Assembly: GCA_032718475.1 (NCBI GenBank)
Contig: JAUCBJ010002637.1
Span: 1 to 33,098 of the forward strand
Direction of reading: 5' to 3'
Length of the DNA: 33,098 nucleotides
DNA from: Nemertoderma westbladi
Taxonomy: Eukaryota > Animalia > Xenacoelomorpha
Position numbers and translations under genes: made by a program. The notes below the pieces were generated by a model. The model was not told the DNA's origin and did not search any database. It worked only from the letters and a program-made list of their open reading frames with translations. Of this stretch, positions 1 to 28,500 are shown piece by piece; position 1 is the stretch's first letter, and each line of letters starts with the position of its first letter.

Positions 1-3000
1 GCAGTGAGTAATATAGTAAACCCATCCTAAGGGATGCAGTGATATATATAATAAACCCGCCCTAAGGGATGCAGTGAATAATATAATAAAACCATCCCAA
101 GGGATGCAGTGAGTAATATAATAAAACCATCCCAAGGGATGCAGTGAGTAATATAATAAACCCACCCTAAGGGATGCAGTGAATAATATAATAAACCCGT
201 CCTAAGGGATGCAGTGATTAATATAATAAAACCATCCCAAGGGATGCAGTGAGTAATATAATAAACCCGTCCTAAGGGATCCAGTGATTAATATAATAAA
301 ACCATCCCAAGGGATGCAGTGAGTAATATAATAAAACCATCCTAAGGGATTCAGTGAGTAATATAGTAAACCCGTCCTAAGGGATGCAGTGAGTAATATA
401 ATAAACCCGCCCTAAGGGATGCAGTGAGTAATATAGTAAACCCATCCAAAGGGATGCAGAGATATATATAATAAACCCGCCCTAAGGGATGCAGTGAATA
501 ATATAATAAACCCGTCCTAAGGGATGCAGTGAGTAATATAGTAAACCCGTCCTAAGGGATGCAGTGAGTAATATAGTAAACCCGTCCTAAGGGATGCAGT
601 GAATAATATAATAAACCCTTCCTAAGGGATGCAGTGAGTAATATAATAAAACCATCCCAAGGGATGCAGTGAGTAATATAGTAAACCCAACCTAAGGGAT
701 GCAGTGAGTAATATAGTAAACCCATCCTAAGGGATGCAGTGAGTAATATAGTAAACCCAACCTAAGGGATGCAGTGAGTAATATAGTAAACACACCCTAA
801 GGGATGCAGTGAATAATATAATAAACCCGTCCTAAGGGATGCAGTGAGTAATATAGTAAACCCGTCCTAAGGGATGCAGTTAATAATATAATAAACCCTT
901 CCTAAGGGATGCAGTGAGTAATATAATAAAACCATCCCAAGGGATGCAGTGAGTAATATAATAAACCCACCCTAAGGGATGCAGTGAATAATATAATAAA
1001 CCCGTCCTAAGGGATGCAGTGAGTAATATAATAAAACCATCCCAAGGGATGCAGTGAGTAATATAATAAAGCCGTCCTAAGGGATGCAGTGAGTAATATA
1101 GTAAACCAATCCTAAAGGATGCAGTGAGTAATATAATAAACCCATCCTAAGGGATGCAGTGAGTAATATAGTAAACCAATCCTAAAGGATGCAGTGAGTA
1201 ATATAATAAAACCATCCCAAGGGATGCAGTGAGTATTATAATAAACCCGTCCTAAGGGATGCAGTGAGTAATATAGTAAACCAATCCTAAAGGATGCAGT
1301 GAGTAATATAATAAACCCATCCTAAGGGATGCAGTGAGTAATATAATAAACCCATCCTAAGGGATGCAGTGATATATATAATAAACCCGCCCTAAGGGAT
1401 GCAGTGAATAATATAATAAACCCGTCCTAAGGGATGCAGTGAGTAATATAATAAAACCAGTCCTAAGGGATGCAGTGAATAATATAATAAACCCGTCCTA
1501 AGGGATGCAGTGAGTAATATAATAAAACCAGTCCTAAGGGATGCAGTGAGTAATATAATAAAACCAGTCCTAAGGGATGCAGTGAGTAATATAATAAAAC
1601 CATCCCAAGGGATGCAGTGAGTAATATAATAAACCCATCCTAAGGGATGCAGTGATATATATAATAAACCCGCCCTAAGGGATGCAGTGAATAATATAAT
1701 AAACCCGTCCTAAGGGATGCAGTGAGTAATATAATAAAACCAGTCCTAAGGGATGCAGTGAGTAATATAATAAAACCAGTCCTAAGGGATGCAGTGAGTA
1801 ATATAATAAAACCATCCCAAGGGATGCAGTGAGTAATATAATAAACCCGTCCTAAGGGATGCAGTGAGTAATATAATAAACCCATCCTAAGGGATGCAGT
1901 GATATATATAATAAACCCGCCCTAAGGGATGCAGTGAATAATATAATAAACCCGTCCTAAGGGATGCAGTGAGTAATATAATAAAACCAGTCCTAAGGGA
2001 TGCAGTGAGTAATATAATAAAACCATCCCAAGGGATGCAGTGAGTAATATGATAAACCCATCCTAAGGGATGCAGTGATATATATAATAAACCCGCCCTA
2101 AGGGATGCAGTGAGTAAGATAGTAAACCCGTCCTAAGGGATGCAGTGAATAATATAATAAACCCTTCCTAAGGGATGCAGTGAGTAATATAATAAAACCA
2201 TCCCAAGGGATGCAGTGAGTAATATAATAAACCCACCCTAAGGGATGCAGTGAATAATATAATAAACCCGTCCTAAAGGATGCAGTGAGTAATATAGTAA
2301 ACCCATCCTAAGGGATGCAGTGATATATATAATAAACCCGCCCTAAGGGATGCAGTGAATAATATAATAAAACCATCCCAAGGGATGCAGTGAGTAATAT
2401 AATAAAACCATCCCAAGGGATGCAGTGAGTAATATAATAAACCCACCCTAAGGGATGCAGTGAATAATATAATAAACCCGTCCTAAGGGATGCAGTGATT
2501 AATATAATAAAACCATCCCAAGGGATGCAGTGAGTAATATAATAAACCCGTCCTAAGGGATCCAGTGATTAATATAATAAAACCATCCCAAGGGATGCAG
2601 TGAGTAATATAATAAAACCATCCTAAGGGATTCAGTGAGTAATATAGTAAACCCGTCCTAAGGGATGCAGTGAGTAATATAATAAACCCGCCCTAAGGGA
2701 TGCAGTGAGTAATATAGTAAACCCATCCAAAGGGATGCAGAGATATATATAATAAACCCGCCCTAAGGGATGCAGTGAATAATATAATAAACCCGTCCTA
2801 AGGGATGCAGTGAGTAATATAGTAAACCCGTCCTAAGGGATGCAGTGAGTAATATAGTAAACCCGTCCTAAGGGATGCAGTGAATAATATAATAAACCCT
2901 TCCTAAGGGATGCAGTGAGTAATATAATAAAACCATCCCAAGGGATGCAGTGAGTAATATAGTAAACCCAACCTAAGGGATGCAGTGAGTAATATAGTAA

Positions 3001-6000
3001 ACCCATCCTAAGGGATGCAGTGAGTAATATAGTAAACCCAACCTAAGGGATGCAGTGAGTAATATAGTAAACACACCCTAAGGGATGCAGTGAATAATAT
3101 AATAAACCCGTCCTAAGGGATGCAGTGAGTAATATAGTAAACCCGTCCTAAGGGATGCAGTTAATAATATAATAAACCCTTCCTAAGGGATGCAGTGAGT
3201 AATATAATAAAACCATCCCAAGGGATGCAGTGAGTAATATAATAAACCCACCCTAAGGGATGCAGTGAATAATATAATAAACCCGTCCTAAGGGATGCAG
3301 TGAGTAATATAATAAAACCATCCCAAGGGATGCAGTGAGTAATATAATAAAGCCGTCCTAAGGGATGCAGTGAGTAATATAGTAAACCAATCCTAAAGGA
3401 TGCAGTGAGTAATATAATAAACCCATCCTAAGGGATGCAGTGAGTAATATAGTAAACCAATCCTAAAGGATGCAGTGAGTAATATAATAAAACCATCCCA
3501 AGGGATGCAGTGAGTATTATAATAAACCCGTCCTAAGGGATGCAGTGAGTAATATAGTAAACCAATCCTAAAGGATGCAGTGAGTAATATAATAAACCCA
3601 TCCTAAGGGATGCAGTGAGTAATATAATAAACCCATCCTAAGGGATGCAGTGATATATATAATAAACCCGCCCTAAGGGATGCAGTGAATAATATAATAA
3701 ACCCGTCCTAAGGGATGCAGTGAGTAATATAATAAAACCAGTCCTAAGGGATGCAGTGAATAATATAATAAACCCGTCCTAAGGGATGCAGTGAGTAATA
3801 TAATAAAACCAGTCCTAAGGGATGCAGTGAGTAATATAATAAAACCAGTCCTAAGGGATGCAGTGAGTAATATAATAAAACCATCCCAAGGGATGCAGTG
3901 AGTAATATAATAAACCCATCCTAAGGGATGCAGTGATATATATAATAAACCCGCCCTAAGGGATGCAGTGAATAATATAATAAACCCGTCCTAAGGGATG
4001 CAGTGAGTAATATAATAAAACCAGTCCTAAGGGATGCAGTGAGTAATATAATAAAACCAGTCCTAAGGGATGCAGTGAGTAATATAATAAAACCATCCCA
4101 AGGGATGCAGTGAGTAATATAATAAACCCGTCCTAAGGGATGCAGTGAGTAATATAATAAACCCATCCTAAGGGATGCAGTGATATATATAATAAACCCG
4201 CCCTAAGGGATGCAGTGAATAATATAATAAACCCGTCCTAAGGGATGCAGTGAGTAATATAATAAAACCAGTCCTAAGGGATGCAGTGAGTAATATAATA
4301 AAACCATCCCAAGGGATGCAGTGAGTAATATGATAAACCCATCCTAAGGGATGCAGTGATATATATAATAAACCCGCCCTAAGGGATGCAGTGAGTAAGA
4401 TAGTAAACCCGTCCTAAGGGATGCAGTGAATAATATAATAAACCCTTCCTAAGGGATGCAGTGAGTAATATAATAAAACCATCCCAAGGGATGCAGTGAG
4501 TAATATAATAAACCCACCCTAAGGGATGCAGTGAATAATATAATAAACCCGTCCTAAAGGATGCAGTGAGTAATATAGTAAACCCATCCTAAGGGATGCA
4601 GTGATATATATAATAAACCCGCCCTAAGGGATGCAGTGAATAATATAATAAAACCATCCCAAGGGATGCAGTGAGTAATATAATAAAACCATCCCAAGGG
4701 ATGCAGTGAGTAATATAATAAACCCACCCTAAGGGATGCAGTGAATAATATAATAAACCCGTCCTAAGGGATGCAGTGATTAATATAATAAAACCATCCC
4801 AAGGGATGCAGTGAGTAATATAATAAACCCGTCCTAAGGGATCCAGTGATTAATATAATAAAACCATCCCAAGGGATGCAGTGAGTAATATAATAAAACC
4901 ATCCTAAGGGATTCAGTGAGTAATATAGTAAACCCGTCCTAAGGGATGCAGTGAGTAATATAATAAACCCGCCCTAAGGGATGCAGTGAGTAATATAGTA
5001 AACCCATCCAAAGGGATGCAGAGATATATATAATAAACCCGCCCTAAGGGATGCAGTGAATAATATAATAAACCCGTCCTAAGGGATGCAGTGAGTAATA
5101 TAGTAAACCCGTCCTAAGGGATGCAGTGAGTAATATAGTAAACCCGTCCTAAGGGATGCAGTGAATAATATAATAAACCCTTCCTAAGGGATGCAGTGAG
5201 TAATATAATAAAACCATCCCAAGGGATGCAGTGAGTAATATAGTAAACCCAACCTAAGGGATGCAGTGAGTAATATAGTAAACCCATCCTAAGGGATGCA
5301 GTGAGTAATATAGTAAACCCAACCTAAGGGATGCAGTGAGTAATATAGTAAACACACCCTAAGGGATGCAGTGAATAATATAATAAACCCGTCCTAAGGG
5401 ATGCAGTGAGTAATATAGTAAACCCGTCCTAAGGGATGCAGTTAATAATATAATAAACCCTTCCTAAGGGATGCAGTGAGTAATATAATAAAACCATCCC
5501 AAGGGATGCAGTGAGTAATATAATAAACCCACCCTAAGGGATGCAGTGAATAATATAATAAACCCGTCCTAAGGGATGCAGTGAGTAATATAATAAAACC
5601 ATCCCAAGGGATGCAGTGAGTAATATAATAAAGCCGTCCTAAGGGATGCAGTGAGTAATATAGTAAACCAATCCTAAAGGATGCAGTGAGTAATATAATA
5701 AACCCATCCTAAGGGATGCAGTGAGTAATATAGTAAACCAATCCTAAAGGATGCAGTGAGTAATATAATAAAACCATCCCAAGGGATGCAGTGAGTATTA
5801 TAATAAACCCGTCCTAAGGGATGCAGTGAGTAATATAGTAAACCAATCCTAAAGGATGCAGTGAGTAATATAATAAACCCATCCTAAGGGATGCAGTGAG
5901 TAATATAGTAAACCCGTCCTAAGGGAAGCATGCAGTGAGTAATATAGTAAACCCAACCTAAGGGATGCAGTGAGTAATATAGTAAACCCGTCTTAAGGGA

Positions 6001-6836
6001 AGCATCCAGTGAGTAATATAATAAAACCATCCCAAGGGATGCAGTGAATAATATAATAAACCCGTCCTAAGGGATGCAGTGAGTAATATAGTAAACCCGT
6101 CCTAAGGGATGCAGTGAATAATATAATAAACCCTTCCTAAGGGATGCAGTGAGTAATATAATAAAACCATCCCAAGGGATTCAGTGAGATATATAATAAA
6201 CCCGTCCTAAGGGATTCAGTTAGTAATATAATAAAACCATCCTAAGGGATTCAGTTAGTAATATAATAAAACCATCCTAAGGGATTCAGTGAGTAATATA
6301 GTAAACCCGTCCTAAGGGATGCAGTGAGTAATATAATAAAACCATCCCAAGGGATGCAGTGAGTAATATAATAAACCCGTCCAAAGGGATTCAGTTAGTA
6401 ATATAATAAAACCATCCTAAGGGATTCAGTTAGTAATATAATAAAACCATCCTAAGGGATTCAGTGAGTAATATAGTAAACCCGTCCTAAGGGATGCAGT
6501 GAGTAATATAGTAAACCCGTCCTAAGGGATGCAGTGAGTAATATAGTAAATCCATCCTAAGGGATGCAGTGAGTAATATAATAAAACCATCCTAAGGGAT
6601 TCAGTGAGTAATATAGTAAACCCGTCCTAAGGGATGCAGTGAGTAATATAATAAAACCATCCTAAGGGATTCAGTGAGTAATATAGTAAATCCATCCTAA
6701 GGGATTCAGTGAGTAATATAGTAAATCCGCCCTAAGGGATGCAGTGAATAATATAATAAACCCTTCCTAAGGGATGCAGTGAGTAATATAGTAAACCCAT
6801 CCTAAGGGATGCAGTGAGTAATATAGTAAACCCGTC
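1..6836. repeat. 35-bp tandem satellite (about 195 monomers in window, continues past window start) with a 2281-bp higher-order repeat
   Basis: Consensus GCAGTGAGTAATATAATAAACCCGTCCTAAGGGAT. Rare variants recur at exactly +2281 (e.g. 'aaagccgt', G at 1071/3352/5633; identical ORFs at 1640 and 3921). Confidence 0.98.
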
Positions 6837-9640
6837 GTACCAGCTTGCCCTGTAGATTGCCCCCAACCGAACCCTCTATACATCCAACCTACCAGTTTGC
6901 CCTGTAGATTGCCCCCAACCGAACCCTCTATACATCCAACCTACCAGTTTGCCCTGTAGATTGCGCCCCACGGCACCCTCTCTACCTCTAACCTACCAGT
7001 TTGCCCTGTATATTGCCTTCCACTGAATTCTCTCTACCTCTAACCTACCAGTTTGCCCTGTATATTGCCCTCCACTGAACCATCTCTACCTCTAACCTAC
7101 CAATTTGCCCTGTATATTGCCCTCAACCTCCACTGAACCCTCTCGACCTCTAACCTACCAGTTTACCCCGTATATTGCCATCCACTAAACCCTCTCTACC
7201 TCCAACCTACCAGTTTGCCCTGTATAGTGCCCTCCACTGCACCCTCTCTACCTCTAACCTACCAGTTTGCCCTGTAGATTGCCCCCCACCGAACCCTCTC
7301 TACCTCTAACCTACCAGTTTGCCCTTTATATTGCCCTCCGCTGAACCCTCTCTACCTCTAACCTACCAGTTTGTCCTGTATATTGCCCTCCACTGCACCC
7401 TCTCTACCTCTAACCTACCAGTTTGCCCTGTAGATTGCCCCCCACCGAACCTTCTCTACCTCTAACCTACCAGTTTGCCCTGTAGATTGCCCCCCACCGA
7501 ACCATCTCTACCTCTAACCTACCAGTTTGCCCTGTAGATTGCCCTCCACTGATCCCTATCTACCTCTAACCTACCTGTTTGCCCTGTAGATTGCCCCCCA
7601 CCGAACCTTCTCTACCTCTAACCTACCAGTTTGCCCTGTAGATTGCCCCCCACCGAACCCTCTCTGCCCCTAACCTACCAGTTTGCCCTGTATATTGCCT
7701 TCCGCTGAACCCTCTCTACCTCTAACCTACCAGTTTGTCCTGTATATTGCCCTCCATTGCACCCTCTCTACCTCTAACCTACCAGTTTGCCCTGTAGATT
7801 GCCCCCACCGAACCCTCTCTATCTCTAACCAACCAGTTTGCCCTGTAGATTGCCCCCCACCGAACCATCTCTACCTCTAACCTACCAATTTGCCCTGTAG
7901 ATTGCCCTCCACTGATCCCTCTCTACCTCTAACCTACCTGTTTGCCCTGTAGATTGCCCCCCACCGAACCTTCTCTACCTCTAACCTACCAGTTTGCCCT
8001 GTAGATTGCCCTCCACCGAACCCTCTCTGCCCCTAACCTACCAGTTTGCCCTGTATATTGCCTTCCACTGAACCCTCTCTACCTCTAACCTATCAGTTTG
8101 CTACCTCTAACCTACCAGTTTGTCCTGTATATTGCCTTCCACTGAACCCTCTCTACCTCTAACCTACCAGTTTGCCCTGTAGATTGCCCTCCACTGAACC
8201 CTATCTACCTCTAACCTACCAGTTTGCCCTGTAGATTGCCCTCCAATGAACCCTCTCTACCTCCAACCTACCAGTATGCCCTGTAGATTGCTCCCCACCG
8301 AACCCTCTCTACCTCTAACCTACCAGTTTGCCCTGTAGATTGCCCCCCACCGAACCCTTTCTACCTCTAACCTACCAGTTTGCCCTGTAGATTGCCCCCC
8401 ACCGAACCCTTTCTACCTCTAACCTACCAGTTTGCCCTGTAGATTGCCCCCCACCGAACCATCTCTACCTCTAACCTACCAGTTTGCCCTGTAGATTGCC
8501 CTCCACTGATCCCTCTCTACCTCTAACCTACCTGTTTGCCCTGTAGATTGCCCTCCAATGAACCCTCTCTACCTCCAACCTACCAGTTTGCCCTGTAGAT
8601 TGCCCCCCACCGAACCCTCTCTGCCTCTAACCTACCAGTTTGCCCTGTATATTGCCTTCCACTGAACCCTCTCTACCTCTAACCTATCAGTTTGCAACCT
8701 CTAACCTACCAGTTTGTCCTGTATATTGCCTTCCACTGAACACTCTCTACCTCTAACCTACCAGTTTGCCCTGTAGATTGCCCTCCACTGAACCCTATCT
8801 ACCTCTAACCTACCAGTTTGCCCTGTAGAGTGCCCTCCAATGAACCCTCTCTACCATCAACCTACCAGTTTGCCCTGTAGATTGCCCCCCACCGAACCTT
8901 CTCTACCTCTAACCTACCAGTTTGCCCTGTATATTGCCTTCCACTGAACCCTCTCTACCTCTAACCTATCAGTTTGCTACCTCTAACCTACCAGTTTGTC
9001 CTGTATATTGCCTTCCACTGAACCCTCTCTACCTCTAACCTACCAGTTTGCCCTGTATATTGCCTTCCACTGAACCCTCTCTACTTCTAACCTGCCAGTT
9101 TGCCCTGTATATTGCCCTCCACTGAACCCTCTTTACATTTAACCTACCAGTTTGCCCTGTAGATTGCCCCCCACCGAACCATCTCTGCCTCTAACCTACC
9201 AGTTTGCCCTGTAGATTGCCCTCCACTGAACCCTCTTTACATTTAACCTACCAGTTTTTCCTGTATATTGCCTTCCACTGAACCCTCTCTACTTCTAACC
9301 TGCCAGTTTGCCCTGTATATTGCCCTCCACTGAACCCTCTTTACATTTAACCTACCAGTTTGCCCTGTAGATTGCCCCCCACCGAACCCTCTCTGCCTCT
9401 AACCTACCAGTTTGCCCTCCACTGAACCCTCTTTACATTTAACCTACCAGTTTGCCCTGTAGATTGCCCTCCACAGCACCCTCTCTACCTCTAACCTACC
9501 AGTTTGTCCTGTATATTGCCTTCCACTGAACCCTCTCTACTTCTAACCTGCCAGTTTGCCCTGTATATTGCCCTCCACTGAACCCTCTTTACATTTAACC
9601 TACCAGTTTGCCCTGTAGATTGCCCTCCACAGCACCCTCT
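6837..9640. repeat. 52-bp tandem minisatellite (about 54 copies) containing the exon end and splice donor of exon 9919-9604
   Basis: Unit ~ACCAGTTTGCCCTGTAGATTGCCCCCCACCGAACCCTCTCTACCTCTAACCT; 'accag' at 6839, 6891, 6943 gives period 52. Minus strand reads ...GGGCAATCTACAGGGCAAACTG|GTAGGT. Confidence 0.97.
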
Positions 9641-9919
9641 CCAGCTCTGCAGTATGCCTGGCAACCGATGTGCATAGTTATCCCGGCAAACTCCTCCGGT
9701 ACGCCCCCTCGCGGTTCACAACGGACACCGACAACTGCTTTGTAGCATCGCTTTATCAACTCCTTTATCTCAGTACGGGTGCAACAGCCAATCAATAGCC
9801 GCTCTACCTCAGCTGGGTAGCTATGGTAACCGGCGTATACAGCAAACTCTTCCTCGTCCAATCGAGAAAGAGTTTCCTTGTATAACAACATCCGTTCATC
9901 CGGGTGGATTTGGTCAGAA
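9604..9919 (-). CDS. Internal coding exon (316 nt) of an unidentified multi-exon gene: SDQIHPDERMLLYKETLSRLDEEEF...MHIGCQAYCRAGEGAVEGNLQGKL
   Basis: Acceptor ttttgtttcag|T at 9920/9919, donor CTG|GTAGGT at 9604/9603. Open, protein-like frame. The 1-nt overhang completes the phase-2 end of exon 11919-11720 (AG+T = Ser). Confidence 0.8.
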
Positions 9920-10483
9920 CTGAAACAAAATATGGTATATTTTACTGCGGTCATTGCGGTTACTGCTGTCACGTAGTGAGCATAGTCTGCCTTAATACTT
10001 AGTCTATGGTTTCAGATTTGTCTATTTTTCTTATGTATGTCGATTGTGCTCTATCATATCCCCGTGTACTCGGACTGGAATCCGTTCTCTGTTGGGTAGC
10101 TTCTCTTAATTCGATTTTCGTTAAATCAAACGATTACGATTCGTTGATTCGTAATGCATTGTAAGTCTAATATTCAGATAAATTCATTTTTTGTTAAATA
10201 TATAAACTGGGCCGACCGTCGGACTAAATACAATGTGTCTTTCTACAGTATTCAGAATAAACCGACCTATTAGAGAAATAACAAAAGAAATAAGAATATA
10301 TTTTATCTTTACTACCTTGGTAGATAATGATATTCGAACATTTTTAAACATCCAAGATTTGGATGTGATAGAGATTTGGCAACAAAATGGTTGTAGAAAC
10401 CATTTCGGACCACCACAAGGCGCCTTACAGATTTCAACTTTGCTGACGATATTGGTGTTCTGTCGTAGTCGGTGAGCCAGAAA

Positions 10484-10712
10484 TTTTCTACAAATCTTAC
10501 TTAATGATATTGCATGAAATTTGAAATAGAGATAGTTTCACCTCCCTGCTCCTCCGTGGGTGAGCCAGAATTGTTATTTTTGCTTTCATGCTTTTGCTAC
10601 AAGCGTTTATAAAAGGTGTCTCCGTCGATATTGCACCAGTTACACCGCTTATATTCTTCAATCTCATATAAGTTGTTGATTGTTGATGGAAAAAGCTGGC
10701 CGGCCGCGGCCA
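10484..10712 (+). mobile_element. Fragment of a dispersed repeat, homologous to the left arm of the foldback element at about 12040-12260
   Basis: Shares 'gattgcatgaaatttgaaatagagatagttt...cacctccc...ctcctccgtggg.gagccagaatt...gctacaagcgttt...gtgtctccg.cgatat...aagctggccggcc' with 12040-12260. Confidence 0.8.
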
Positions 10713-10714
10713 TG

Positions 10715-11440
10715 TTCTCTGAATGTCTGTAGGTAGGTCGTCCCAAAGTTTGGTGGCCTCTGGTAGGATATGGAGGACCGGGTGAGATTGGACCGGTATA
10801 ATGGTGGTTGGTAGCTTGGAATGCACTGCTGGCTGTTCGAGTGGGATAAGTATGGATAGATTTGGTGAGTGTGAAGTTGTTGTTTAGTTGGGATGTGAGT
10901 TTTGATAGACCCAGTAACTGTAGTCATTGGAATTTATAGAGTGAGGACAGATTCATGGTCATGAGATTTCAAGAGGATTATTCGGATGATTTTTTCTGTA
11001 ATTATATTAGAGGAAGAAGGCAGACAGTGGTGTGAGAATCGCCGCAGTTCCCCACGCCGTGACTTAAGTGGGAGTCAACCATAGAGAATGATATAAGTTA
11101 ATGCACGGTATGTTTAGTGGCAAGAAGTTCTTAGCTTTGTTTATAATTCCAATATTTTTTGCAATTTTTAGTCGAATATAATCGATGTGTTTGTTCCATT
11201 TTAAATTATCGCTGATAAATATACCAGGAATTTTATATGTTTAACTTGTTCAATGTTGTGTGGACCAATTGAGATTTTCGGTAGTAGGCTTATTCTTAAG
11301 TTGCGATTTTTCTGAAAAATCATAAATTTTTTTGTGCTTTGGTGATGTTTAGGGAAAGTTTATTAGTTTGGAGCCATATTATTAGAATATTTTCAAATTT
11401 CGTGTTTGCTAATGTAATCAGATCGTCTGAATATTTATTG
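10715..11440 (-). mobile_element. Degenerate non-LTR retrotransposon (CR1/L2-like LINE), 3' part of ORF2
   Basis: Frameshifted minus-strand translation gives WLQTNKLSLNITK...IEQVKHIKFL...ISDNLKWNKHIDYIRLKIAKNIGIINKAK...LQKKIIRII...KLWDDLP, typical of the RT thumb/C-terminus of CR1/L2-group elements. Confidence 0.8.
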
Positions 11441-11719
11441 GAAATAAATATTGTAATGAATCGATAGCGAAAAGGAAAAAAAATTTAAATTTGTTGATGA
11501 GGCCGTAATATCATTATCACTGCCATCGCTGTCAGGATCAACCTGTTGACAACCTTCTGCTCTGGAAACCACCATGAAGCAGACATGTTGACCACGCCAA
11601 ACTTGAAAAGTTTGTGGCTGACTGGGTGATTTCATGCGACTTTATTTCTGGGACTGCTGTTCACGGCCTTCTATAATACCATGCCTTGTACTCTACGTAT
11701 GCTACAATCCTACACTAAC

Positions 11720-11919
11720 CTGCTCATTCGAACGTTGCTTAGCAACTGGGTGGCTCCGTGCCAGGAAGCCAGTACCTCCTCTACCGAAACAAATCCAATG
11801 AACCCCTGTCCCGTTGCCATGGTAGAGGCGACCGCATTGAGAGGAGATAGAGACTCTGCTACCGCACTGTGAAACTGAATCTCCAACTCAAGAATCAGAG
11901 ACAAACTCTTTGCGAATAT
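11720..11919 (-). CDS. Internal coding exon (200 nt) of the same unidentified gene: IFAKSLSLILELEIQFHSAVAESLSPL...QLLSNVRMS
   Basis: Acceptor tttctcattag|ATA at 11920/11919 (phase 0, matching the upstream exon). Donor AG|GTTAGT at 11720/11719 (phase 2, matching the downstream exon). Frame is open (ORF 11710..11904). Confidence 0.8.
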
Positions 11920-12039
11920 CTAATGAGAAATCAATAATTTCACTCCAATTTAATTAAATATGATAATATAATAGATATAACCATGTCCTGGAATATAGTG
12001 TAACGGAGAAATGGATCCCACCCCCCCCCCCCCCCCCCC

Positions 12040-12720
12040 ATTTTTTCTACAAATCGTAATGAGATTGCATGAAATTTGAAATAGAGATAGTTTGTCACCT
12101 CCCTCCTCCTCCGTGGGAGAGCCAGAATTTTTAATTTGCTTTCAATCTTTAGCTACAAGCGTTTGAAAAATGTGTCTCCGGCGATATTTCACCAGTTACA
12201 CTCCAGTTATTCTTCAACCTTATAGTGAGTTGTTGCTACTGATGGAAAGCTGGCCGGCCATGTAAGGAATCCAAATATGTAACATAATCTAAATTTCGTT
12301 GAAAACTAGCTGAGATTTGAGCGTCAAAAGTTTCATGGTTTTACATCTGCATGAGGCTATTTTATTCTATTAAATAAAAATACCTTATTCTAGAACATTT
12401 TGTTTATTTATGAATAGCTACGTAATAGTATAATTAAAGAGGCATTGCATTGTTGCCCAGCTACATATGGAATAAACAAAATGTTCTAGAACATTGTGTA
12501 TTTATTAAATAGAATAAATGGCCTGCGGGGGAAGCAAATACATGCAACATTCGAATGCCAATATCTCAGCTATTTACCAACCAAATTCAAATGTTTTTAC
12601 AGATTTGGAATCCTTGCACGGTCAGCTTTCTACTAGTGCCAATAAATCACTATAAGGTTGAAGAATGATTGCACTGTGAGCTGTGGAATATCGCCGGAGA
12701 CACATTTTTCAAACACTTGT
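12040..12720. mobile_element. Long imperfect palindrome (foldback/MITE-like element), right arm cut off by the 60-bp array
   Basis: acaagcgtttgaaaaatgtgtctccggcgatat (from 12155) pairs with atatcgccggagacacatttttcaaacacttgt (to 12720). Inner pair ttctagaacattttgtttatt / aataaacaaaatgttctagaa. Centre about 12437; second partial copy at 10484-10712. Confidence 0.8.
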
Positions 12721-15700
12721 CCACAGGGCACAGACACTAAGTTACGTTATTTACACATTGACTTGACGGCAGAAAGATCCACAGGGCACAGACACTAAGT
12801 TACGTTACTTACACATTGACTTGACGGCAGAAAGATCCACAGGGCACATAGACTAAGTTACGTTACTTACATTGACTTGGAGTACGGCAGAAAGATCCAC
12901 AGGGCACAGACGCTAAGTTACGTTACTTACATTGACTTGGAGTACGGCAGAAAGATCCACAGGGCACAGACACTAAAGTTACGTTACATACATTGACTTG
13001 GAGTACGGCAGAAAGCTCCACAGGGCACAGACACTAAGTTACGTTACTTACATTGACTTGGAGTACGGCAGAAAGATCCACAGGGCACAGACACTAAGTT
13101 ACGTTACTTACATTGACTTGGAGTACGGCAGAAAGATCCGCAGGGCACATAGACTAAGTTACGTTACTTACATTGACTTGGAGTACGGCAGAAAGATCCA
13201 CAGGGCACAGACACTAAGTTATGTTACATACATTGACTTGGAGTAAGGCAGAAAGATCCACAGGGCACAGACACTAAGTTACGTTACTTACATTGACTTG
13301 GAGTACGGCAGAAAGATCCACAGGGCACAGACACTAAGTTACGTTACTTACATTGACTTGGAGTACGGCAGAAAGATCCACAGGGCACAGACACTAAGTT
13401 ACGTTACTTACATTGACTTGGAGTACGGCAGAAAGATCCACAGGGCACAGACACTAAAGTTACGTTACATACATTGACTTGGAGTACGGCAGAAAGATCC
13501 ACAGGGCACAGACACTAAGTTACGTTACTTACATTGACTTGGAGTACGGCAGAAAGATCCACAGGGCACAGACACTAAGTTACGTTACTTACATTGACTT
13601 GGAGTATGGCAGAAAGATCCACAGGGCACAGACACTAAAGTTACGTTACATACATTGACTTGGAGTACGGCAGAAAGATCCACAGGGCACAGACACTAAG
13701 TTACGTTACTTACATTGACTTGGAGTACGGCAGAAAGATCCACAGGGCACAGACACTAAAGTTACGTTACATACATTGACCTGGAGTACGGCAGAAAGAT
13801 CCACAGGGCACAGACACTAAGTTACGTTACTTACATTGACTTGGAGTACGGCAGAAAGATCCACAGGGCACAGACACTAAGTTACGTTACTTACATTGTC
13901 TTGGAGTACGGCAGAAAGATCCACAGGGCACAGACACTAAGTTACGTTACTTACATTGACTTGGAGTACGGCAGAAAGATCCACAGGGCACAGAGACTAA
14001 GTTACGTTACTTACAATGACTTGGGGTACGCCAGAAAGATCCACAGGGCACAGAGACTAAGTTACGTTACTTACATTGACTTGGAGTACGGCAGAAACAT
14101 CCACAGGGCACAGACACTAAAGTTACGTTACATACATTGACTTGGAGTACGGCAGAAAGATCCACAGGGCACAGACACTAAGTTACGTTACTTACATTGT
14201 CTTGGAGTACGGCAGAAAGATCCACAGGGCACAGACACTAAGTTACGTTACTTACAATGACTTGGGGTACGCCAGAAAGATCCACAGGGCACAGAGACTA
14301 AGTTACGTTACTTACATTGACTTGGAGTACGGCAGAAACATCCACAGGGCACAGACACTAAAGTTACGTTACATACATTGACTTGGAGTACGGCAGAAAG
14401 ATCCACAGGGCACAGACACTAAGTTACGTTACTTACATTGTCTTGGAGTACGGCAGAAAGATCCACAGGGCACAGACACTAAGTTACGTTACTTACAATG
14501 ACTTGGGGTACGCCAGAAAGATCCACAGGGCACAGACACTAAAGTTACGTTACATACATTGACTTGACGGCAGAAAGATCCACAAGGCACAGACACTAAG
14601 TTACGTTACTTACATTGACTTGGAGTACGGCAGAAAGATCCACAGGGCACAGACACTAAAGTTACGTTACATACATTGACTTGACGGCAGAAAGATCCAC
14701 AAGGCACAGACACTAAGTTACGTTACTTACATTGACTTGGAGTACGGCAGAAAGATCCACAGGGCACAGAGATTAAGTTACGTTACTTACATTGACTTGG
14801 AGTACGGCAGAAACATCCACAGGGCACAGACACTAAAGTTACGTTACATACATTGACTTGGAGTACGGCAGAAAGATCCACAGGGCACAGACACTAAGTT
14901 ACGTTACTTACACATTGACTTGGAGTACGGCAGAAACATCCACAGGGCACAGACACTAAAGTTACGTTACATACATTGACTTGGAGTACGGCAGAAAGAT
15001 CCACAGGGCACAGACACTAAAGTTACGTTACATACATTGACTTGACGGCAGAAAGATCCACAAGGCACAGACACTAAGTTACGTTACTTACATTGACTTG
15101 GAGTACGGCAGAAAGATACACAGGGCACAGAGATTAAGTTACGTTACTTACATTGACTTGGAGTACGGCAGAAATATCCACAGGGCACAGACACTAAGTT
15201 ACGTTACTTACATTGACTTGGAGTACGGCAGAAAGATCCACAGGGCACAGACACTAAGTTACGTTACTTACATTGACTTGGAGTACGGCAGAAAGATCCA
15301 CAGGGCACAGACACTAAGTTACGTTACTTACATTGACTTGGAGTACGGCAGAAAGATCCACAGGGCACAGACACTAAGTTACGTTACTTACATTGACTTG
15401 GAGTACGGCAGAAAGATACACAGGGCACAGACACTAAGTTACCTTACTTACATTGACTTGGAGTACGGCAGAAAGATCCACAGGGCACAGACACTAAGTT
15501 ACGTTACTTACACATTGACTTGGAGTACGGCAGAAAGATCCACAGGGCACAGACACTAAGTTACGTTACTTACATTGACTTGGAGTACGGCAGAAAGATC
15601 CACAGGGCACAGACACTAAGTTACGTTACTTACACATTGACTTGGAGTACGGCAGAAAGATCCACAGGGCACAGACACTAAGTTACGTTACTTACACATT

Positions 15701-16995
15701 GACTTGGAGTACGGCAGAAAGATCCACAGGGCACAGACACTAAGTTACGTTACTTACATTGACTTGGAGTACGGCAGAAAGATCCACAGGGCACAGACAC
15801 TAAGTTACGTTACTTACATTGACTTGGAGTACGGCAGAAAGATCCACAGGGCACAGACACTAAGTTACGTTACTTACATTGACTTGGAGTACGGCAGAAA
15901 AATCCACAGGGCACATACACTAAGTTACGTTACTTACATTGACTTGGAGTACGGCAGAAAGATCCACAGGGCACAGACACTAAGTTACGTTACTTACATT
16001 GACTTGGAGTACGGCAGAAAGATCCACAGGGCACAGACACTAAGTTACGTTACTTACATTGACTTGGAGTACGGCAGAAAGATCCACAGGGCACAGACAC
16101 TAAGTTACGTTACTTACATTGACTTGGAGTACGGCAGAAAGATCCACAGGGCACAGACACTAAGTTACGTTACTTACATTGACTTGGAGTACGGCAGAAA
16201 GATCCACAGGGCACAGACACTAAGTTACGTTACTTACATTGACTTGGAGTACGGCAGAAAGATCCACAGGGCACAGACACTAAGTTACGTTACTTACATT
16301 GACTTGGAGTACGGCAGAAAGATCCACAGGGCACAGACACTAAGTTACGTTACTTACATTGACTTGGAGTACGGCAGAAAGATCCACAGGGCACAGACAC
16401 TAAGTTACGTTACTTACATTGACTTGGAGTACGGCAGAAAGATCCACAGGGCACAGACACTAAGTTACGTTACTTACATTGACTTGGAGTACGGCAGAAA
16501 GATCCACAGGGCACAGACACTAAGTTACGTTACTTACATTGACTTGGAGTACGGCAGAAAGATCCACAGGGCACAGACACTAAGTTACGTTACTTACATT
16601 GACTTGGAGTACGGCAGAAAGATCCACAGGGCACAGACACTAAGTTACGTTACTTACATTGACTTGGAGTACGGCAGAAAGATCCACAGGGCACAGACAC
16701 TAAGTTACGTTACTTACATTGACTTGGAGTACGGCAGAAAGATCCACAGGGCACAGACACTAAGTTACGTTACTTACATTGACTTGGAGTACGGCAGAAA
16801 GATCCACAGGGCACAGACACTAAGTTACGTTACTTACATTGACTTGGAGTACGCCAGAAAGATCCACAGGGCACAGACACTAAGTTACGTTACTTACATT
16901 GACTTGGAGTACGGCAGAAAGATCCACAGGGCACAGAGACGTTGGTTACGTTGGTTACTTACATTAACTTGGGGTACGCCAGATGGATCCACAGA
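12721..16995. repeat. ~60-bp tandem minisatellite (about 70 copies) containing the exon end and GTAAGT donor of exon 17109-16963
   Basis: Unit GATCCACAGGGCACAGACACTAAGTTACGTTACTTACATTGACTTGGAGTACGGCAGAAA. Minus strand CTGTGGATCTTTCTGCCGTACTCCAAGTCAAT|GTAAGT versus exon CTGTGGATCCATCTGGCGTACCCCAAGTTAAT|GTAAGT. Confidence 0.97.
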
Positions 16996-17109
16996 TGACG
17001 TCATCCGATGAATTTCCTGCTGAATCTGATCGCAAGCTTCTTTTGTAGCTAAATTAATATCCTGAAGGATACACTCTAGTTTCACTGCTATATCCCAACT
17101 ATTAGTATC
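16963..17109 (-). CDS. Internal coding exon (147 nt) of the same unidentified gene: DTNSWDIAVKLECILQDINLATKEACDQIQQEIHRMTSSVDPSGVPQVN
   Basis: Acceptor ttctatgtttccag|GAT at 17110/17109, donor AAT|GTAAGT at 16963/16962. 49 codons, phase 0 at both ends, helical-looking peptide. Confidence 0.8.
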
Positions 17110-17296: not shown

Positions 17297-19764
17297 GTTT
17301 ACTGGAGACATCGTACAACAGAACTGTAAGCCACCAGTAAACTGGAGACTTCGTACAACAGAACTGTAAGCCACCAGTAAACTGGGGACTTCGTATAACA
17401 GAACTGTAAGCCACCAGTAAACTGGAGACTTCGTACAACAGAACTGTAAGCCACCAGTAAACTCCGGACTTCGTACAACAGAACTGTAAGCCACCAGTAA
17501 ACTCCGCACTTCGTACAACAGAAGTGTAAGCCACCAGTAAACTGGAGACTTCGTACAACAGAACTGTAACCCACCAGTAAACTTGGGACTTCGTACAACA
17601 TAACTGTAAGCCACCAGTAAACTCCGCACTTCGTACAACAGAACTGTAAGCCACCAGTAAACTGGAGACTTCGTACAACAGAACTGTAAGCCACCAGTAA
17701 ACTGGGGACTTCGTACAACAGAACTGTAAGCCACCAGTAAACTCCGGACTTCGTACAACAGAACTGTAAGCCACCAGTAAACTCCGCACTTCGTACAACA
17801 GAACTGTAAGCCACCAGTAAACTGGAGACTTCGTACAACAGAACTGTAAGCCACCAGTAAACTCCGGACTTCGTACAACAGAACTGTAAGCCACCAGTAA
17901 ACTCCGCACTTCGTAGAACAGAAGTGTAACCCACCAGTAAACTGGGGACTTTGTACAACAGAACTGTAAGCCACCAGTAAACTTGGGACTTCGTACAACA
18001 TAACTGTAAGCCACCAGTAAACTCCGCACTTCGTACAACAGAACTGTAAGCCACCAGTAAACTCCGCACTTCGTACAACAGAACTGTAAGCCACCAGTAA
18101 ACTGGGGACTTTGTACAACAGAACTGTAAGCCACCAGTAAACTTGGGACTTCGTACAACATAACTGTAAGCCACCAATAAACTCCGCACTTCGTACAACA
18201 GAACTGTAAGCCACCAGTAAACTCCGAACTTCGTACAACAGAACTGTAAGCCACCAGTAAACTGGAGACTTCGTACAACAGAACTGTAACCCACCAGTAA
18301 ACTCAGGACTTCGTACAACATAACTGTAAGCCACCAGTAAACTGGGGACTTTGTACAACAGAACTGTAAGCCACCAGTAAACTTGGGACTTCGTACAACA
18401 TAACTGTAAGCCACCAGTAAACTCCGCACTTCGTACAACAGAAGTGTAACCCACCAGTAAACTCTGGACTTCGTACAACAGAACTGTAAGCCACCAGTAA
18501 ACTGGGGACTTTGTACAACAGAACTGTAAGCCACCAGTAAACTTGGGACTTCGTACAACATAACTGTAAGCCACCAGTAAACTCCGCACTTCGTACAACA
18601 GAAGTGTAAGCCACCAGTAAACTGGAGACTTCGTACAACAGAACTGTAACCCACCAGTAAACTCCGGACTTCGTACAACAGAACTGTAAGCCACCAGTAA
18701 ACTGGAGACATCGTACAACAGAACTGCAACCCACCAGTAAACTGGAGACTTCGTACAACATAACTGTAAGCCACCAGTAAACTGGAGACTTCGTACAACA
18801 GAACTGTAACCCACCAGTAAACTCCGGACTTCGTACAACAGAACTGTAAGCCACCAGTAAACTGGAGACTTCGTACAACAGAACTGTAACCCACCAGTAA
18901 ACTTGGGACTTCGTACAACATAACTGTAAGCCACCAGTAAACTCCGAACTTCGTACAACATAACTGTAAGCCACCAGTAAACTGGAGACTTCGTACAACA
19001 TAACTGTAAGCCACCAGTAAACTGGGGACTTTGTACAACAGAACTGAAAGCCACCAGTAAACTGGGGACTTCGTACAACATAACTGTAAGCCACCAGTAA
19101 ACTCCGGACTTCGTACAACAGAACTGTAAGCCACCAGTAAATTCCGAACCTCTTACAACAGAAATGTAAGCCTCCAGTAAACTGGGGACTTCGTACAACA
19201 TAACTGTAAGCCACCTGTAAACTCCAGACTTCGTACAACAGAACTGTAAGCCACCTGTAAACTCCAGACTTCGTACAACATAACTGTAAGCCACCAGTAA
19301 ACTGGGGACTTCGTACAACAGAACTGTAAGCCACCAGTAAACTGGGGACTTTGTACAACAGAACTGTAAGCCACCAGTAAACTGGAGACTTCGTACAACA
19401 GAACTGTAAGCCACCTGTAAACTCCAGACTTCGTACAGCAGAACTGTAAGCCACCAGTAAACTCCGAACTTCGCACAACAGAACTGCAAGCCACCAGTAA
19501 ACTGGGGACTTCGTACAACAGAACTGTGAGCCACCAGTAAACTCCGGACTTCGTACAACATAACTGTAAGCCACCAGTAAACTGGGGACTTCGTACAACA
19601 GAACTGTAAGCCACCAGTAAACTGGGGACTTTGTACAACAGAACTGTAAGCCACCAGTACACGTGGGACCTCGTACAACAGAACTGTAAGCCACCAGTAA
19701 ACTGGAGACTTCGTACAACAGAACTGTAAGCCACCAGTAAACTCCAGACTTCGTACAGCAGAAC
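17297..19764. repeat. 40-bp tandem minisatellite (about 62 copies, no indels)
   Basis: Unit ACT[GGAG/GGGG/CCGG/CCGC/TGGG...]ACTTCGTACAACAGAACTGTAAGCCACCAGTAA; the register is constant along the whole array. Confidence 0.98.
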
Positions 19765-19993
19765 ACGTTATGGCTTCTGACCCACCCAAAACCACACAAC
19801 CCTCGTATAATGAGACGGGTGGGGATGTTCAATTATAAATTTAGGGAAAGGAGCAGGTTACAGGGGTACCATATTCTAACCAAAACAATAAACCGAAGTC
19901 AATAGGACATGGTAGTTTTATTTTTTGGAAGTAACAGCTGTCATTTCGATTTTCCCCTGGTGGTGTGGGATGAATTTTCATTACGCCGAAAGT

Positions 19994-20279
19994 CCCCGCC
20001 GTATCCGAGTAAACCGCACAGTTCTGACTCGCATCCCCGCCGTTTCCGAGTAAACCTCACAGTTCTGACTCGCATCCCCGCCGTATCCGAGTAAACCTCA
20101 CAGTTCTGACTCGCATCCCCGCCGTATCCGAGTAAACCTCACAGTTCTGACTCGCATCCCCGCCGTTTCCGAGTAAACCTCACAGTTCTGACTCGCATCC
20201 CCGCCGTATCCGAGTAAACCTCACAGTTCTGACTCGCATCCCCGCCGTTTCCGAGTAAACCTCACAGTTCTGACTCGCA
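19994..20279. repeat. 41-bp tandem repeat (about 7 copies)
   Basis: Unit CCCCGCCGT(A/T)TCCGAGTAAACCTCACAGTTCTGACTCGCAT. Confidence 0.95.
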
Positions 20280-21360: not shown

Positions 21361-21602
21361 AACCAATCAACGACTCTCAATCAGGGCTGTCCCAACCAAT
21401 CAACGACCCTCAATCAGGGCTGTCCCAACCAATCAACGACCCTCAATCAGGGCTGTCCCAACCAATCAACGATCCTCAATCAGGGCTGTCCGAGTGGCCA
21501 ATCAACGACCCTCAATCAGGGCTGTCCGAGTGGCAAATCAACGACCCTCAATCAGGGCTGTCCCAACCAATCAACGACCCTCAATCAGGGCTGTCCGAGT
21601 GG
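21361..21602. repeat. 33/36-bp tandem repeat (7 copies) spanning the UBXN10 stop codon and 3' UTR start
   Basis: Unit (AA)CCAATCAACGACCCTCAATCAGGGCTGTCC(C/GAGTGG); minus strand GAC AGC CCT GAT TGA is the last four codons plus stop. Confidence 0.93.
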
Positions 21603-23086
21603 CTATGAAGGTAAATCACAGACTTATCTGTGATCCGATAATCGTTCAACGTCTTATTCAAATCTGAAAGAATTCTCGAGGGAATATCTGCGGTCACAAA
21701 ATCGTGATGCTGGAAACGCATATCGGCTGTTTGTTCCGCGAATTCTAGAACGTTTCTAAGCGGGTCGTCGATGTGGAACAATCGTTGACAGCGCTGTCCA
21801 CTTGGCAACCGGATCGCCAACAGGATGTCGGAGACGGATTTGGGTTGCGATACGTCTATCCAGTCGATATCCGGTAAGTCGGAAGAATCCGAGTCCGTCG
21901 GAGTCGGGGCGTTTGGCGAGAGTACCTGGTAGTCACCGTAGTCTGTGATAGCGAAACCTTCTAGGTCCTGTAGGGAGTCCCGTCTGGGTTGCGAGTCTGG
22001 GGAGGGGAGTGGCAGCTCAGTTTGGTACGGTGGGTCAGTCTGGTACGATGGGTCTGGTTGGTACATTGGGTCTCTTTGATACATTTGGTCCGTTTGGTAC
22101 ATTGGATCCGTTTGGTACATTGGGTCTGTTTGGTACATTGGGTCTGTTTGATACATTCGGTCCGTTTGATACACTGGGTCTGTTTGGTACAGGTTTCCAG
22201 TGTGGTGTGGCGCTTCCGGTAGCGACCCAGAACGTCCGCCGATCCCCGGTAACGGCGCGTACCGACCCAACGACGACGAACCCTCCGGACGGAGTTGCGA
22301 AAGGATATCCAGGGTATCGTCGGTGGAGAGACGCCTCCTAGCGGAGGTTAATGGTCGCGGAACCACGCCGCTAGGGGGCGCGTAGGATGTGTCTACACGA
22401 GGTGCCTGCTGCGACATGCAATCCCGGGTGGAGGAACTGGTCGGATTGACGAGACGGGGAGCCTCGAAACGATCGAACCACGGAACCTCGTCGACGACGC
22501 GTTGCGTAGCAACCGTCGGACTTCGGGAAGCCATCTCGCGGTCGTTCTGCGCGAACTCCTCCTGTATCGGGGGTCTAGAACGTCGCCCTCGGGAGGTGCG
22601 AGGCCTTTCGGTTCCCTCGTAAGCGATCACCGTGGGAGCCTCGCTGGCCGACGGATCGGGCTGCTGCGAGTAGAAGATCTCCGCACCCAGGTTGAGATTC
22701 AGTGACTCATCGGTAGGTTTCGTCTCCCTGGGTGACGGTTTAGGCTTCGGTTGTACCTGTTTAGCCTGGATGGAACCGGTGAAGGTCTGTCGATTCGCTT
22801 TGCTCGAAACCACCGCCGTTTGAGGTTTCGCTCTGGGGGACTGGAAGTTTCTCGACGCGCCAGTTTGGTATGTTCTGCTAGTCGAGGAAACCGACGCGTT
22901 GGATAGACCCCGTCTGTACCCGTAGGTCGGGAGGGTCTGCTGGCCGCCTATTGGCCGTTGCTGCGGTGTCCTGGAACTGGGTTGCTGTCCGGCCATCCCA
23001 CCAGGTTTACCATTCGGATTCTCTATTTGTTGGCGTTTCTCGCTTCCTCTACTGGTACGTGGACGATTGTCCATCGTAGTGGCCAT
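21581..23086 (-). CDS. UBXN10: UBX domain-containing protein 10-like (p97/VCP adaptor linked to ciliogenesis), single coding exon, 501 aa
   Basis: C-terminal UBX domain (LLAIRLPSGQRCQRLFHIDDPL...IPSRILSDLNKTLNDYRITDKSVIYL). Motifs RPRTSRGRRSRP and SSSLGRYAPLPGI resemble human UBXN10 RPKSAKGRTRP and SSSLNKYPVLPSI (recalled from memory). Long disordered N-terminus. Confidence 0.85.
   Translation of the reverse strand: MATTMDNRPRTSRGSEKRQQIENPNGKPGGMAGQQPSSRTPQQRPIGGQQTLPTYGYRRGLSNASVSSTSRTYQTGASRNFQSPRAKPQTAVVSSKANRQTFTGSIQAKQVQPKPKPSPRETKPTDESLNLNLGAEIFYSQQPDPSASEAPTVIAYEGTERPRTSRGRRSRPPIQEEFAQNDREMASRSPTVATQRVVDEVPWFDRFEAPRLVNPTSSSTRDCMSQQAPRVDTSYAPPSGVVPRPLTSARRRLSTDDTLDILSQLRPEGSSSLGRYAPLPGIGGRSGSLPEAPHHTGNLYQTDPVYQTDRMYQTDPMYQTDPMYQTDPMYQTDQMYQRDPMYQPDPSYQTDPPYQTELPLPSPDSQPRRDSLQDLEGFAITDYGDYQVLSPNAPTPTDSDSSDLPDIDWIDVSQPKSVSDILLAIRLPSGQRCQRLFHIDDPLRNVLEFAEQTADMRFQHHDFVTADIPSRILSDLNKTLNDYRITDKSVIYLHSHSDSPD
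22010..22189 (-). repeat. Coding 18-bp repeat, 10 x YQTDPM-like hexapeptide
   Basis: YQTDPV YQTDRM YQTDPM x3 YQTDQM YQRDPM YQPDPS YQTDPP YQTELP in the ORF. Confidence 0.95.
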
Positions 23087-25524: not shown

Positions 25525-28500
25525 TTACACAAGTAATTTATGCATATGAATCTCGTTATGGGCAACACTAAATATAATATTTCCGCGAGGTGAAAAAATA
25601 ACTTTACTGAGACTGTCGGAGTGGGTAAGAAAGTCCTGAAACGTTCCTTCCGTGTAGTCCACTAGTTTGATGAGCCATTCTCTGGTCGCTATAGCAATGA
25701 CGTGGCCCTTTGGGGACACGTCGAGCGAAGCAGCCCAATGGTTAATGTCGAGTTTACGAATAGTTTTCCGTTGACTTAAACTATAAAACTGGATACAACA
25801 TTGCAAACCGTAGCCGCTGTACACGATAACATCTGTGTCTGTGGGGCTAAACCGAGCGAGACTAGGCGGGTTACTGGACGGGTCTGTGGAGCCAGACAGG
25901 GCTGGGAAAGTCAACCAATCGATGAGGTCGCACAGATCCCGCGACCAATCGGAGCTCCACACGCTGACCCGCCGGTCCTGCGAGCAGACCAACCACAGAG
26001 AGGGTGGGGCCACCATCGGATCCCTATTGGTCGAGGGTTGGGCGTGTAAGTCGGTAATAGAAGCGCCTTTGTGATCAGATATAATACGCAACGTCATTCC
26101 GGTCGCGGTGTTGTTCACCGCAATCAACCCGTCCGCACCACCGCTTATAAAAACCCGCTCATCGCGACTGTATATAACGTGTTCTACGCTGGAGGAATGC
26201 GGACGCATCTTTAGAGTTACGTCCATTTTAGTCAGATCGAAAAGACGCAAAGTCCCATCGAGGTAGCCGGCTATTACTTTCAGTTTGTTGAGTGGCGTCG
26301 TCTCTGGACTAAAGGCGACGCAGCCACAACTCTGCCCCGCAACCTGGAACTGCATAGATTGCTCCACCGCAGAGCCATCTAGCGTCCACAATCGCACGCT
26401 GCCGTCGGCGCAACTGGTTGCTAGGTAACGCTCGTTGTTAAGGGCGACACCTGTTACTGACAGGGAGTGGCTGCTGACCAGACGAATGGAACTCCTCTCA
26501 TCCCAGTTGATGTACCACAGAGTGGAGGCGTCAGTCCCCACTATACCCATATCAAGAGAGGAGTCGAAGGAGGCACTAATTACTCCTCCGTCCAAGACCA
26601 TCTCGTCTTCCATAACCAACTGCTGCCTCCCTTGTCGCTCCTCCCTAATGCTCCACAGTCGCAACCGACCCGCGCTGCTCCCCATCACCAACCGACGACT
26701 CCTACAGACTAAGACCCCAATCTCTGCCGTGTCCCCCTCCCAGTGCATGTAACACGAGTTGTCCCGGGTGTCCCATGCGCTCAAAGTACCCCGACTGGTC
26801 CCCGCGTACAGCGAGCTGTCGGGGCCGTAACAGACCGACGTCAGTTCCCCGACTACCTCACCAGGGACACACGCACGATGGACCCCCAGACGAACCCCCT
26901 CACCAAGTTCCAACATCCAGAAAGAAATACATCGATCGTAACCAATGGTAACGAACTCGGTAAAGGCCGACGGGTCCCATGAGATCTGTAGAACCGGAGT
27001 CTCCGGGACACAAGCGGTTAGCAGACTCCAGTCCGCGGTAGACCACAGCGCAACGGCAGGGCTGTGGAGGTCCCCCGCTGATATTAAATAAGAGTCGTCC
27101 TTAGAGAACGCCAACGATTGCACACCTGTTTTATAGTAAGTTATAATTTTAATAAGTCTGTTCGGTAAACTCCAGATACAGAGTTGGCAGTTGGAAAGAC
27201 CGTCAGAGGAGGAAGCTGTAGCCAAAAACTGGGAGGCGTTGCTAAGAGACAATGTGTTTATTTCGTGGTCGTGGCCAATCAGATGAGTCTGCTCGTTAGT
27301 GGTGAGATCCTCAACAATAACAATGGCGCCGCTCGTGTATATGACTAAGGATGAGTCAGCGTCTGCGTTCCACGCCAGGTTGGAACGTCCGTTCCCGTTG
27401 TATCCGATTACTGTAGTTAGTTTGAGACCCGACTGGTTAGGTGGAGCCACATACCGGCACTGAGCCACTGGGAAGCACCGCTCCCGACTGAGGAACCGTT
27501 TGTGGACGGCGGCAAATCGCTGCACCGAAGGTTCCGTTAACCCAACGTTTTCTACGTCTCTTTCCGTCTGTCGATCCATTATCAATCCAGTTACCGGTGG
27601 CGGTGTATGAGATTCATTTAAATCGTAGATAGTCGGACTGGTGGAACCGAATGCTAACATTGTGTCGGCGTCACCCATTGGCTCTCCAGACAACTCATCG
27701 GCAACCGACAACTCGGCAGTACTAACGCTCCTCCCACAAGAATTCCTCGCTACTATCGAATATTTACCGGCGTCACTTAAACGGATGTCGGATATAACCA
27801 AACTGAACTTCGCGCCAACAAAGATTTTTTTAATTCTCACAGAGTCATAAATAATCCTCTCATTGTGGAACCACTCCACTTCTGGGTCGGGATCACATTC
27901 TATAATGGCGTCTAAACGAATACCTTCCCCCACCTTGGCCTTCAAACTAACTAACGCATTAACAAAATTAGGAGGCGTAAGCAATCCTGACTGTATAGAA
28001 TGCCCCCCAATGTTACCAACATTAGCAGTTGGAATTACTTTCAGATTCGCATAGGATGTTATTTTCCCTGCGCTATTCTCCGCAATGCAGGTCCAAGTTC
28101 CCGCATCGGGGATACGAATCCTTGAGATATCCAAGGAATGCATCGTACCATCGAAGGATATGACCACCCGACCGTCGTTCTTCACTACCACCCCATCGTG
28201 GAACCACCTCGTACGGAGTGGAGGATGCGACTTGATCCTAACAGAGAATGTAACTCGCCCATCTTCAGGAACTTCCTGATTATGGAGTCTGGAATAGAAC
28301 TTAGGAAGCCTAATGGCTGTCGGGTTATTAATAAATCCATCTCCTTGGTTATCAATGCAGTCTGTCTGTCCATTGGAAACAAAGTCCCAAGGAGGCGATA
28401 TATTATCTCCATTAACGCGGAGCACTTCAGTAAATAGTTTGTTAGGAATCTCTACATTTCCATTACCGGTTCCATTACATTCAATGATGTTTCTAGTTTG

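Follow-up and report, generated by a model that had tools for sequence, protein, structure and literature searches.

Tandem copies of exon-intron boundaries were described in amphioxus, where they were termed 'mirages' (PMC3087553; PMC3902484). Mirages occur in Adh3, in the globin genes BflGb6 and BflGb9, and in the troponin C and PGBD5 genes (PMC3087553, PMC3902484). The BflGb6 mirage lies on the acceptor side, with 3 and 6 units, the units of the Adh3 mirage span 10–72 bp, and splicing is reportedly left undisturbed (PMC3087553); additional file 4 of that paper is the alignment of the BflGb6 mirage, and may bear on the comparison made here.

In humans, splice-junction minisatellites include the 37-bp VNTR in IVS7 of F7, as well as repeats in CBS (IVS13), LMNB2, and PDGF (PMC1557585). 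In the F7 repeat, the pseudo-donors can function yet stay silent, the donor chosen being the most upstream one; conversely, the donor minisatellites of CBS and an interferon-induced gene do use pseudo-sites (PMC1557585). In human segmental duplications, 27 intron modifications caused by internal tandem repeats at exon-intron boundaries were reported (PMC2812944). Beyond these cases, no further acceptor-side or double-sided junction arrays were found in open-access full text, which covers a part of what is in print.

Here, we analyzed a stretch of 33,098 nucleotides from Nemertoderma westbladi (referred to as the window), in which one intron, as far as it is visible, is composed almost wholly of its 5' and 3' splice junctions, repeated head to tail. 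The arrays are mirage, or splice-junction, minisatellites, an already described type of repeat, and their scale and the fully double-sided intron go beyond the published cases compared here.

Results

The host gene and the junction found in run X4

The features of the host gene and its arrays are listed in Table 1. A run search with bases 9604–12000 listed six runs, four of which contain all or part of this stretch. No RNA run was listed as containing it, and the type of X4, given as 'DNA?', is a guess.

Table 1. Host-gene features and associated arrays, by position in the window
Feature	Positions	Strand	Description
35-bp acceptor array	1..6836	-	Unit = 12 nt from the start of the next exon + 23 nt from the end of the intron; ~195 units as assembled
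Exact 2,281-bp (65-unit) higher-order repeat	1..5907	.	~2.6 copies; inside the 35-bp array; from lag comparison
4-nt joint GTAC between arrays	6837..6840	-	Start of the final donor copy, which is degenerate
52-bp donor array	6841..9603	-	Unit = last 46 nt of exon C + 6 nt of donor; GTAGGT at 48 of ~53 donor sites
Exon C	9604..9919	-	Phase 2 to phase 0; the X4 spliced contig uses the first donor, at 9603
Ordinary 1,800-nt GT-AG intron, exons B–C	9920..11719	-	Joint 9919/11720, CT..AC on the plus strand; one X4 contig
Exon B	11720..11919	-	Phase 0 to phase 2; from frame and X4 contig
60-bp array	12720..16994	-	Unit would correspond to the end of predicted exon A with its donor; 52 of the 70 donor-like sites counted read GTAAGT
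Exon A (predicted)	16963..17109	-	Phase 0 to phase 0, in frame with exon B; from sequence and frame only

A 3,181-nt contig of X4 carries exon B (record positions 737–936) followed by exon C (937–1253) with no differences. Because exactly 1,800 nt with GT-AG ends are skipped, this contig is read as a spliced transcript, although the kind of run is only guessed; less probably, it is a processed DNA copy. Several bins of unique intron sequence lack X4 coverage, and neither X5 nor X6 gave an alignment; these results were not counted as evidence.

The X4 contig exits the window sequence at 9603, after the first donor, and then reads in frame D-G-F-I-R-L-L-V-D-T. It had originally been noted that the upstream exon ends in phase 0, from which the next exon was predicted to start with GAY GGG TTT (D-G-F); exon C does end in phase 0, and the contig continues with D-G-F. 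An objection to the prediction, that D-G-F was not implied since the exon-like part of the unit comes first at the upstream edge of the array, was overturned by the same contig.

The first 12 bases after exon C in the contig are identical to the start of 33 of the 195 35-bp units, and 22 more units match over 10 bases. Since an exact 12-base match has a probability of 4^-12 (~6e-8) per site, the agreement is far beyond chance. Past base 12, the best unit matches the contig at 8 of 19 positions, and the 20-mer that follows the 12 bases occurs nowhere in the window. Thus, a transcript-like contig joining exon C to a unit start is present in X4, and the next exon begins with the unit start for 12 bases rather than following an unrelated acceptor. 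The junction evidence at 9596–9960 is a single contig from a single run, which indicates presence and not exclusivity, as contigs drop rare variants. The outermost, first donor is the one used; because the genomic end of the array lies outside the window, it is for the acceptor side that we infer the use of the last copy.

The identity of the host protein as GARRE1/KIAA0355 is putative and not firmly established. Exon C showed a weak match to the GARRE1/KIAA0355 chain 8bux_A (E 4e-4 over 52 aa), exons A and B showed no comparable match, exons A, B, and C had no match in Pfam, and searches of the host-gene protein for homologs and in the ESM Atlas returned none. One representative match, P0001 (E 1.1e-5), was set aside as a homolog, given its weak and probably repeat-inflated alignment and its lack of longer relatives. 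P0001 is an unnamed ENA protein with four tandem 71-residue units weakly similar to exon C, and is probably a translated satellite.

The 35-bp acceptor array

TRF placed the array at 1–6833, with a period of 35, 194.7 copies, and 90% matches. Its first unit on the minus strand has its start at 6836; past position 1, the array continues outside the window. The satellite had been proposed to be a reiterated 3' splice site on the gene's strand, and this reading holds, both for the majority unit, which matches the description, and for the next-exon start, which equals the unit start over the 12 bases given above.

The individual units depart from the majority unit in several respects. The ends of 194 units are TAG (154), TGG (35), TTG (4), and TAA (1), so that AG is lost at 40 of 194 unit ends and the ~195 candidate acceptors originally counted are reduced to 154. 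In all of these 154 AG-ending units, seven or more of the 12 bases upstream are pyrimidines, compared with 0 of 228 YAG sites in the adjoining 52-bp array. The 193 complete units comprise 39 variants in mosaic order. The proposed unit start, GA(C/T)GGG, describes the majority unit, but a tally of the unit listing finds it in only 77 of the 193. The 27-nt pattern of the unit gave 0 matches when compared with metagenome contigs.

The heptamer TACTCAC, which had been placed near CCCTTAG, is present in 132 of the 193 complete units, but its spacing from CCCTTAG is 5 nt, not about 12. In 153 of the 154 AG units, the A of a TACTCAC-type heptamer, variant heptamers included, is found 14 nt upstream of the exon start. 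This position is closer to the exon than the usual animal range for a branch point, and the heptamer may be regarded as a candidate branch point only.

Donor-like sites also occur within the array. Seven AG/GT sites, at 5957, 5323, 5253, 3042, 2972, 761, and 691, all read GTTGGG, and there are eight G/GTGGGT sites. These sites weigh against the main reading given below, as they may permit staged splicing or pseudo-exons. Stepwise removal of the intron, in which the donor would first be spliced to one of the inner acceptors that has GT next to it and would then be re-spliced onward (recursive splicing), could draw on the direct succession of AG and GT in seven units and on an intron length of at least 9.6 kb. 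We consider it very improbable: GTTGGG is a poor donor in all seven cases, six of the seven are copies made by a higher-order repeat (two per 2,281 bp), and GTRAG occurs nowhere in the array in the window. A splice into any of the remaining copies would provide no donor for a further step. An AG directly before a strong 5' splice site, the mark of a recursive (ratchet) splice site, was likewise absent from the array.

Higher-order repeat and copy number

Bases 1–3626 are identical to bases 2282–5907, with 0 mismatches at a lag of 2,281 bp (65 units) over 3,626 nt. This repeat may be a very recent duplication or an assembly artefact, either of which could inflate the copy number, and the non-redundant units number about 90 (~91, as 26 + 65). 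Because the array also runs on beyond the window, the assembled count of 195 units may be too low as well, and it is therefore uncertain in both directions.

It is conceivable that the assembly exaggerates a real but far shorter junction repeat and that the bulk of the 195 copies is an artefact. The mismatch-free identity at the 2,281-bp lag, which reaches the window start, is in keeping with this, and in the 52-, 60-, and 40-bp arrays no exact internal repeat is longer than 149, 817, and 128 nt, respectively. On the other hand, exact higher-order repeats can also come from recent unequal crossover, and ~91 non-redundant units with 39 variants make a large array either way. We regard this possibility as unlikely, though to be kept in mind; it would alter the scale, not the identity, of the junction repeat.

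The 52-bp donor array and the intron as a whole

The donor count of the 52-bp array derives from 54 raw matches, one site apparently having been counted twice, which gives about 53. DNA contigs of run X3 also carry the tandem form of this array. The donor array is contiguous with the authentic exon C junction, whereas the end of the 35-bp array lies beyond the window.

The 9,603 bases of the intron inside the window are made up of 2,763 bases of donor array, 4 bases of joint, and 6,836 bases of acceptor array, with no unique intron sequence, and the intron with both arrays is at least 9.6 kb long. The last donor copy and the first acceptor copy are 39 nt apart, and the 35-bp and 52-bp units have TAGG at the splice site in common.

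The assignment to the mirage type rests on three observations. The repeats are head-to-tail minisatellites within an intron, as shown by the X4 spliced contig; the unit combines a splice signal with adjoining sequence of the real exon (the 12-nt match in 33 of 195 units); and a regular mRNA is formed from the authentic sites, for which one X4 contig indicates presence only.

Other arrays and genes in the window

Tandem arrays occupy 17,138 of the 33,098 bases of the window. A 40-bp array at 17301–19764 (61.6 copies) contains long open frames and two splice-like motifs, CTTACAG on the minus strand, resembling an acceptor, and GTAAGC on the plus strand, resembling a donor; a 41-bp array at 19993–20279 (7 copies) has AG/GT. 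Inspection by eye did not place the two arrays, which may be part of the upstream exons of the host gene, on a consistent exon chain. A high-copy interspersed, MITE-like element at ~12000–12720 and 10420–10730, with a summed contig depth of 10^4 to 10^5 and opposite-strand joints, adjoins the end of the 60-bp array. Fragments at ~31790–32600 and 10800–11250 on the minus strand appear, by eye, to be decayed remnants of a non-LTR retrotransposon ORF2.

An intronless UBX-domain gene on the minus strand (21584–23083) contains an in-frame 18-bp repeat, and a 33-bp array (21361–21603) starts at its last codons, so that the stop codon is repeated ~7 times. WDR90 (25528–31497, minus strand) is an uninterrupted, intronless ORF of 1,990 codons, in which TRF found no tandem array. 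In other animals, WDR90 has many introns. Two stretches of I-set immunoglobulin domains lie between the WDR90 propellers, and I-set (PF07679) was not visible among the Pfam matches listed for WDR90 homologs. Over residues 1–400, the best identity among the 120 homologs listed was 49%, that of Branchiostoma was 44%, and no close relative was among them.

Discussion

The arrays resemble the amphioxus mirages in that they are tandem boundary copies, many but not all of which carry AG/GT, and in that a regular mRNA is formed. The 35-bp array is on the acceptor side, as in BflGb6, and its unit length is within the 10–72 bp of Adh3. Compared with the 3–6 units of BflGb6, there are ~195 units as assembled (~90 non-redundant), a comparison of scale that extends to the globins only. 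Unlike in amphioxus, donor and acceptor arrays here fill one intron, 4 nt apart. The host is a long-branch animal that did not group with Branchiostoma in a tree of one gene, WDR90, built from 27 of the 120 listed homologs.

As in F7, the first unit spans the exon boundary, and only the most upstream donor is used, which applies here to the 52-bp array. The human cases differ in being donor-side and, where numbers were given, in having 10–20 units. Scanning from 5' to 3', as shown for F7, accounts for the use of the first donor only; for the last of 154 acceptors to be used, the opposite polarity would have to apply. The repeats in human segmental duplications are alike in that minisatellite expansion, with a mean unit of ~30 bp, lengthens introns from their exon boundaries, and differ in having a mean of 4 copies and 160 bp (PMC2812944), versus 6.8 kb here.

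We favor, with a probability of roughly 0.8, the reading that tandem copies of the 3' junction face matching copies of the 5' junction, that the first donor is joined to a unique next-exon start, as in the X4 contig, and that the extra copies are likely neutral and skipped. Both arrays would have been started and enlarged by slippage or unequal crossover, as in ordinary minisatellites. A duplication spanning the junction would keep the exon-side site intact and push the spare copies into the intron, and because of this it would survive selection, unlike a duplication inside an exon. The unique middle of the intron would have been lost or overrun. The TAGG common to both units could have seeded a deletion that fused the two arrays, which would need one later substitution.

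The choice of the outermost sites could follow from exon definition, if it takes for each exon the site that gives the shortest exon, namely the first donor and the last acceptor. In addition, the use of inner copies would lead to a premature stop and nonsense-mediated decay, so that errors may be hidden rather than absent. In the window, 151 of the 154 inner acceptors lead to a stop, after a median of 34 codons, the other three being too close to the window end, and read-through past the first donor reaches a stop after two codons.

The same observations bear on the possibility that splicing is leaky, many transcripts taking inner acceptors or donors and being degraded, with array length tuning the productive mRNA. 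The 154 intact acceptor copies with a polypyrimidine stretch would provide for this, nearly all of them would yield a premature stop, and the use of pseudo-sites is reported for some human minisatellites (PMC1557585). However, the sole X4 contig on 9596–9960 has the correct junction, which weighs little, as contigs drop rare forms; site choice in F7 was unchanged with repeat numbers from 1 to 12 (PMC1557585); and amphioxus mirages gave regular mRNA (PMC3087553). Leaky splicing therefore appears distinctly unlikely. Equally speculative, and to us slightly harder to credit, is a decoy-site intron (at least 9.6 kb, with ~53 donors and then at least 154 acceptors) that would act as a length-variable rheostat, in which frequent commitment to inner sites is followed by decay and the repeat number sets the dosage.

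Most likely, then, the copies that are skipped reflect ordinary minisatellite growth, which would strike a repeat-prone genome at many places and persist where it is harmless. Arrays located at a stop codon and in frame, together with their absence from the WDR90 ORF, fit a general repeat process filtered by selection. The mosaic order of the 39 unit variants and the loss of AG at 40 of 194 unit ends also speak for this reading. The intron is likely a harmless, though unusually large, example of a known repeat type. Junction arrays of this type mislead gene prediction and break assemblies.

The locus also lends itself, as a clean natural experiment, to the question of how a 3' splice site is chosen, here the last among many near-identical acceptors. 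Under first-come or first-AG rules, the acceptor would be expected within ~3 kb of the donor. Instead, the join in the X4 contig would be to the site next to the exon, beyond a further 6.8 kb or more that contains 154 near-identical acceptors, and it is not between the donor and acceptor that lie closest together, at 39 nt.
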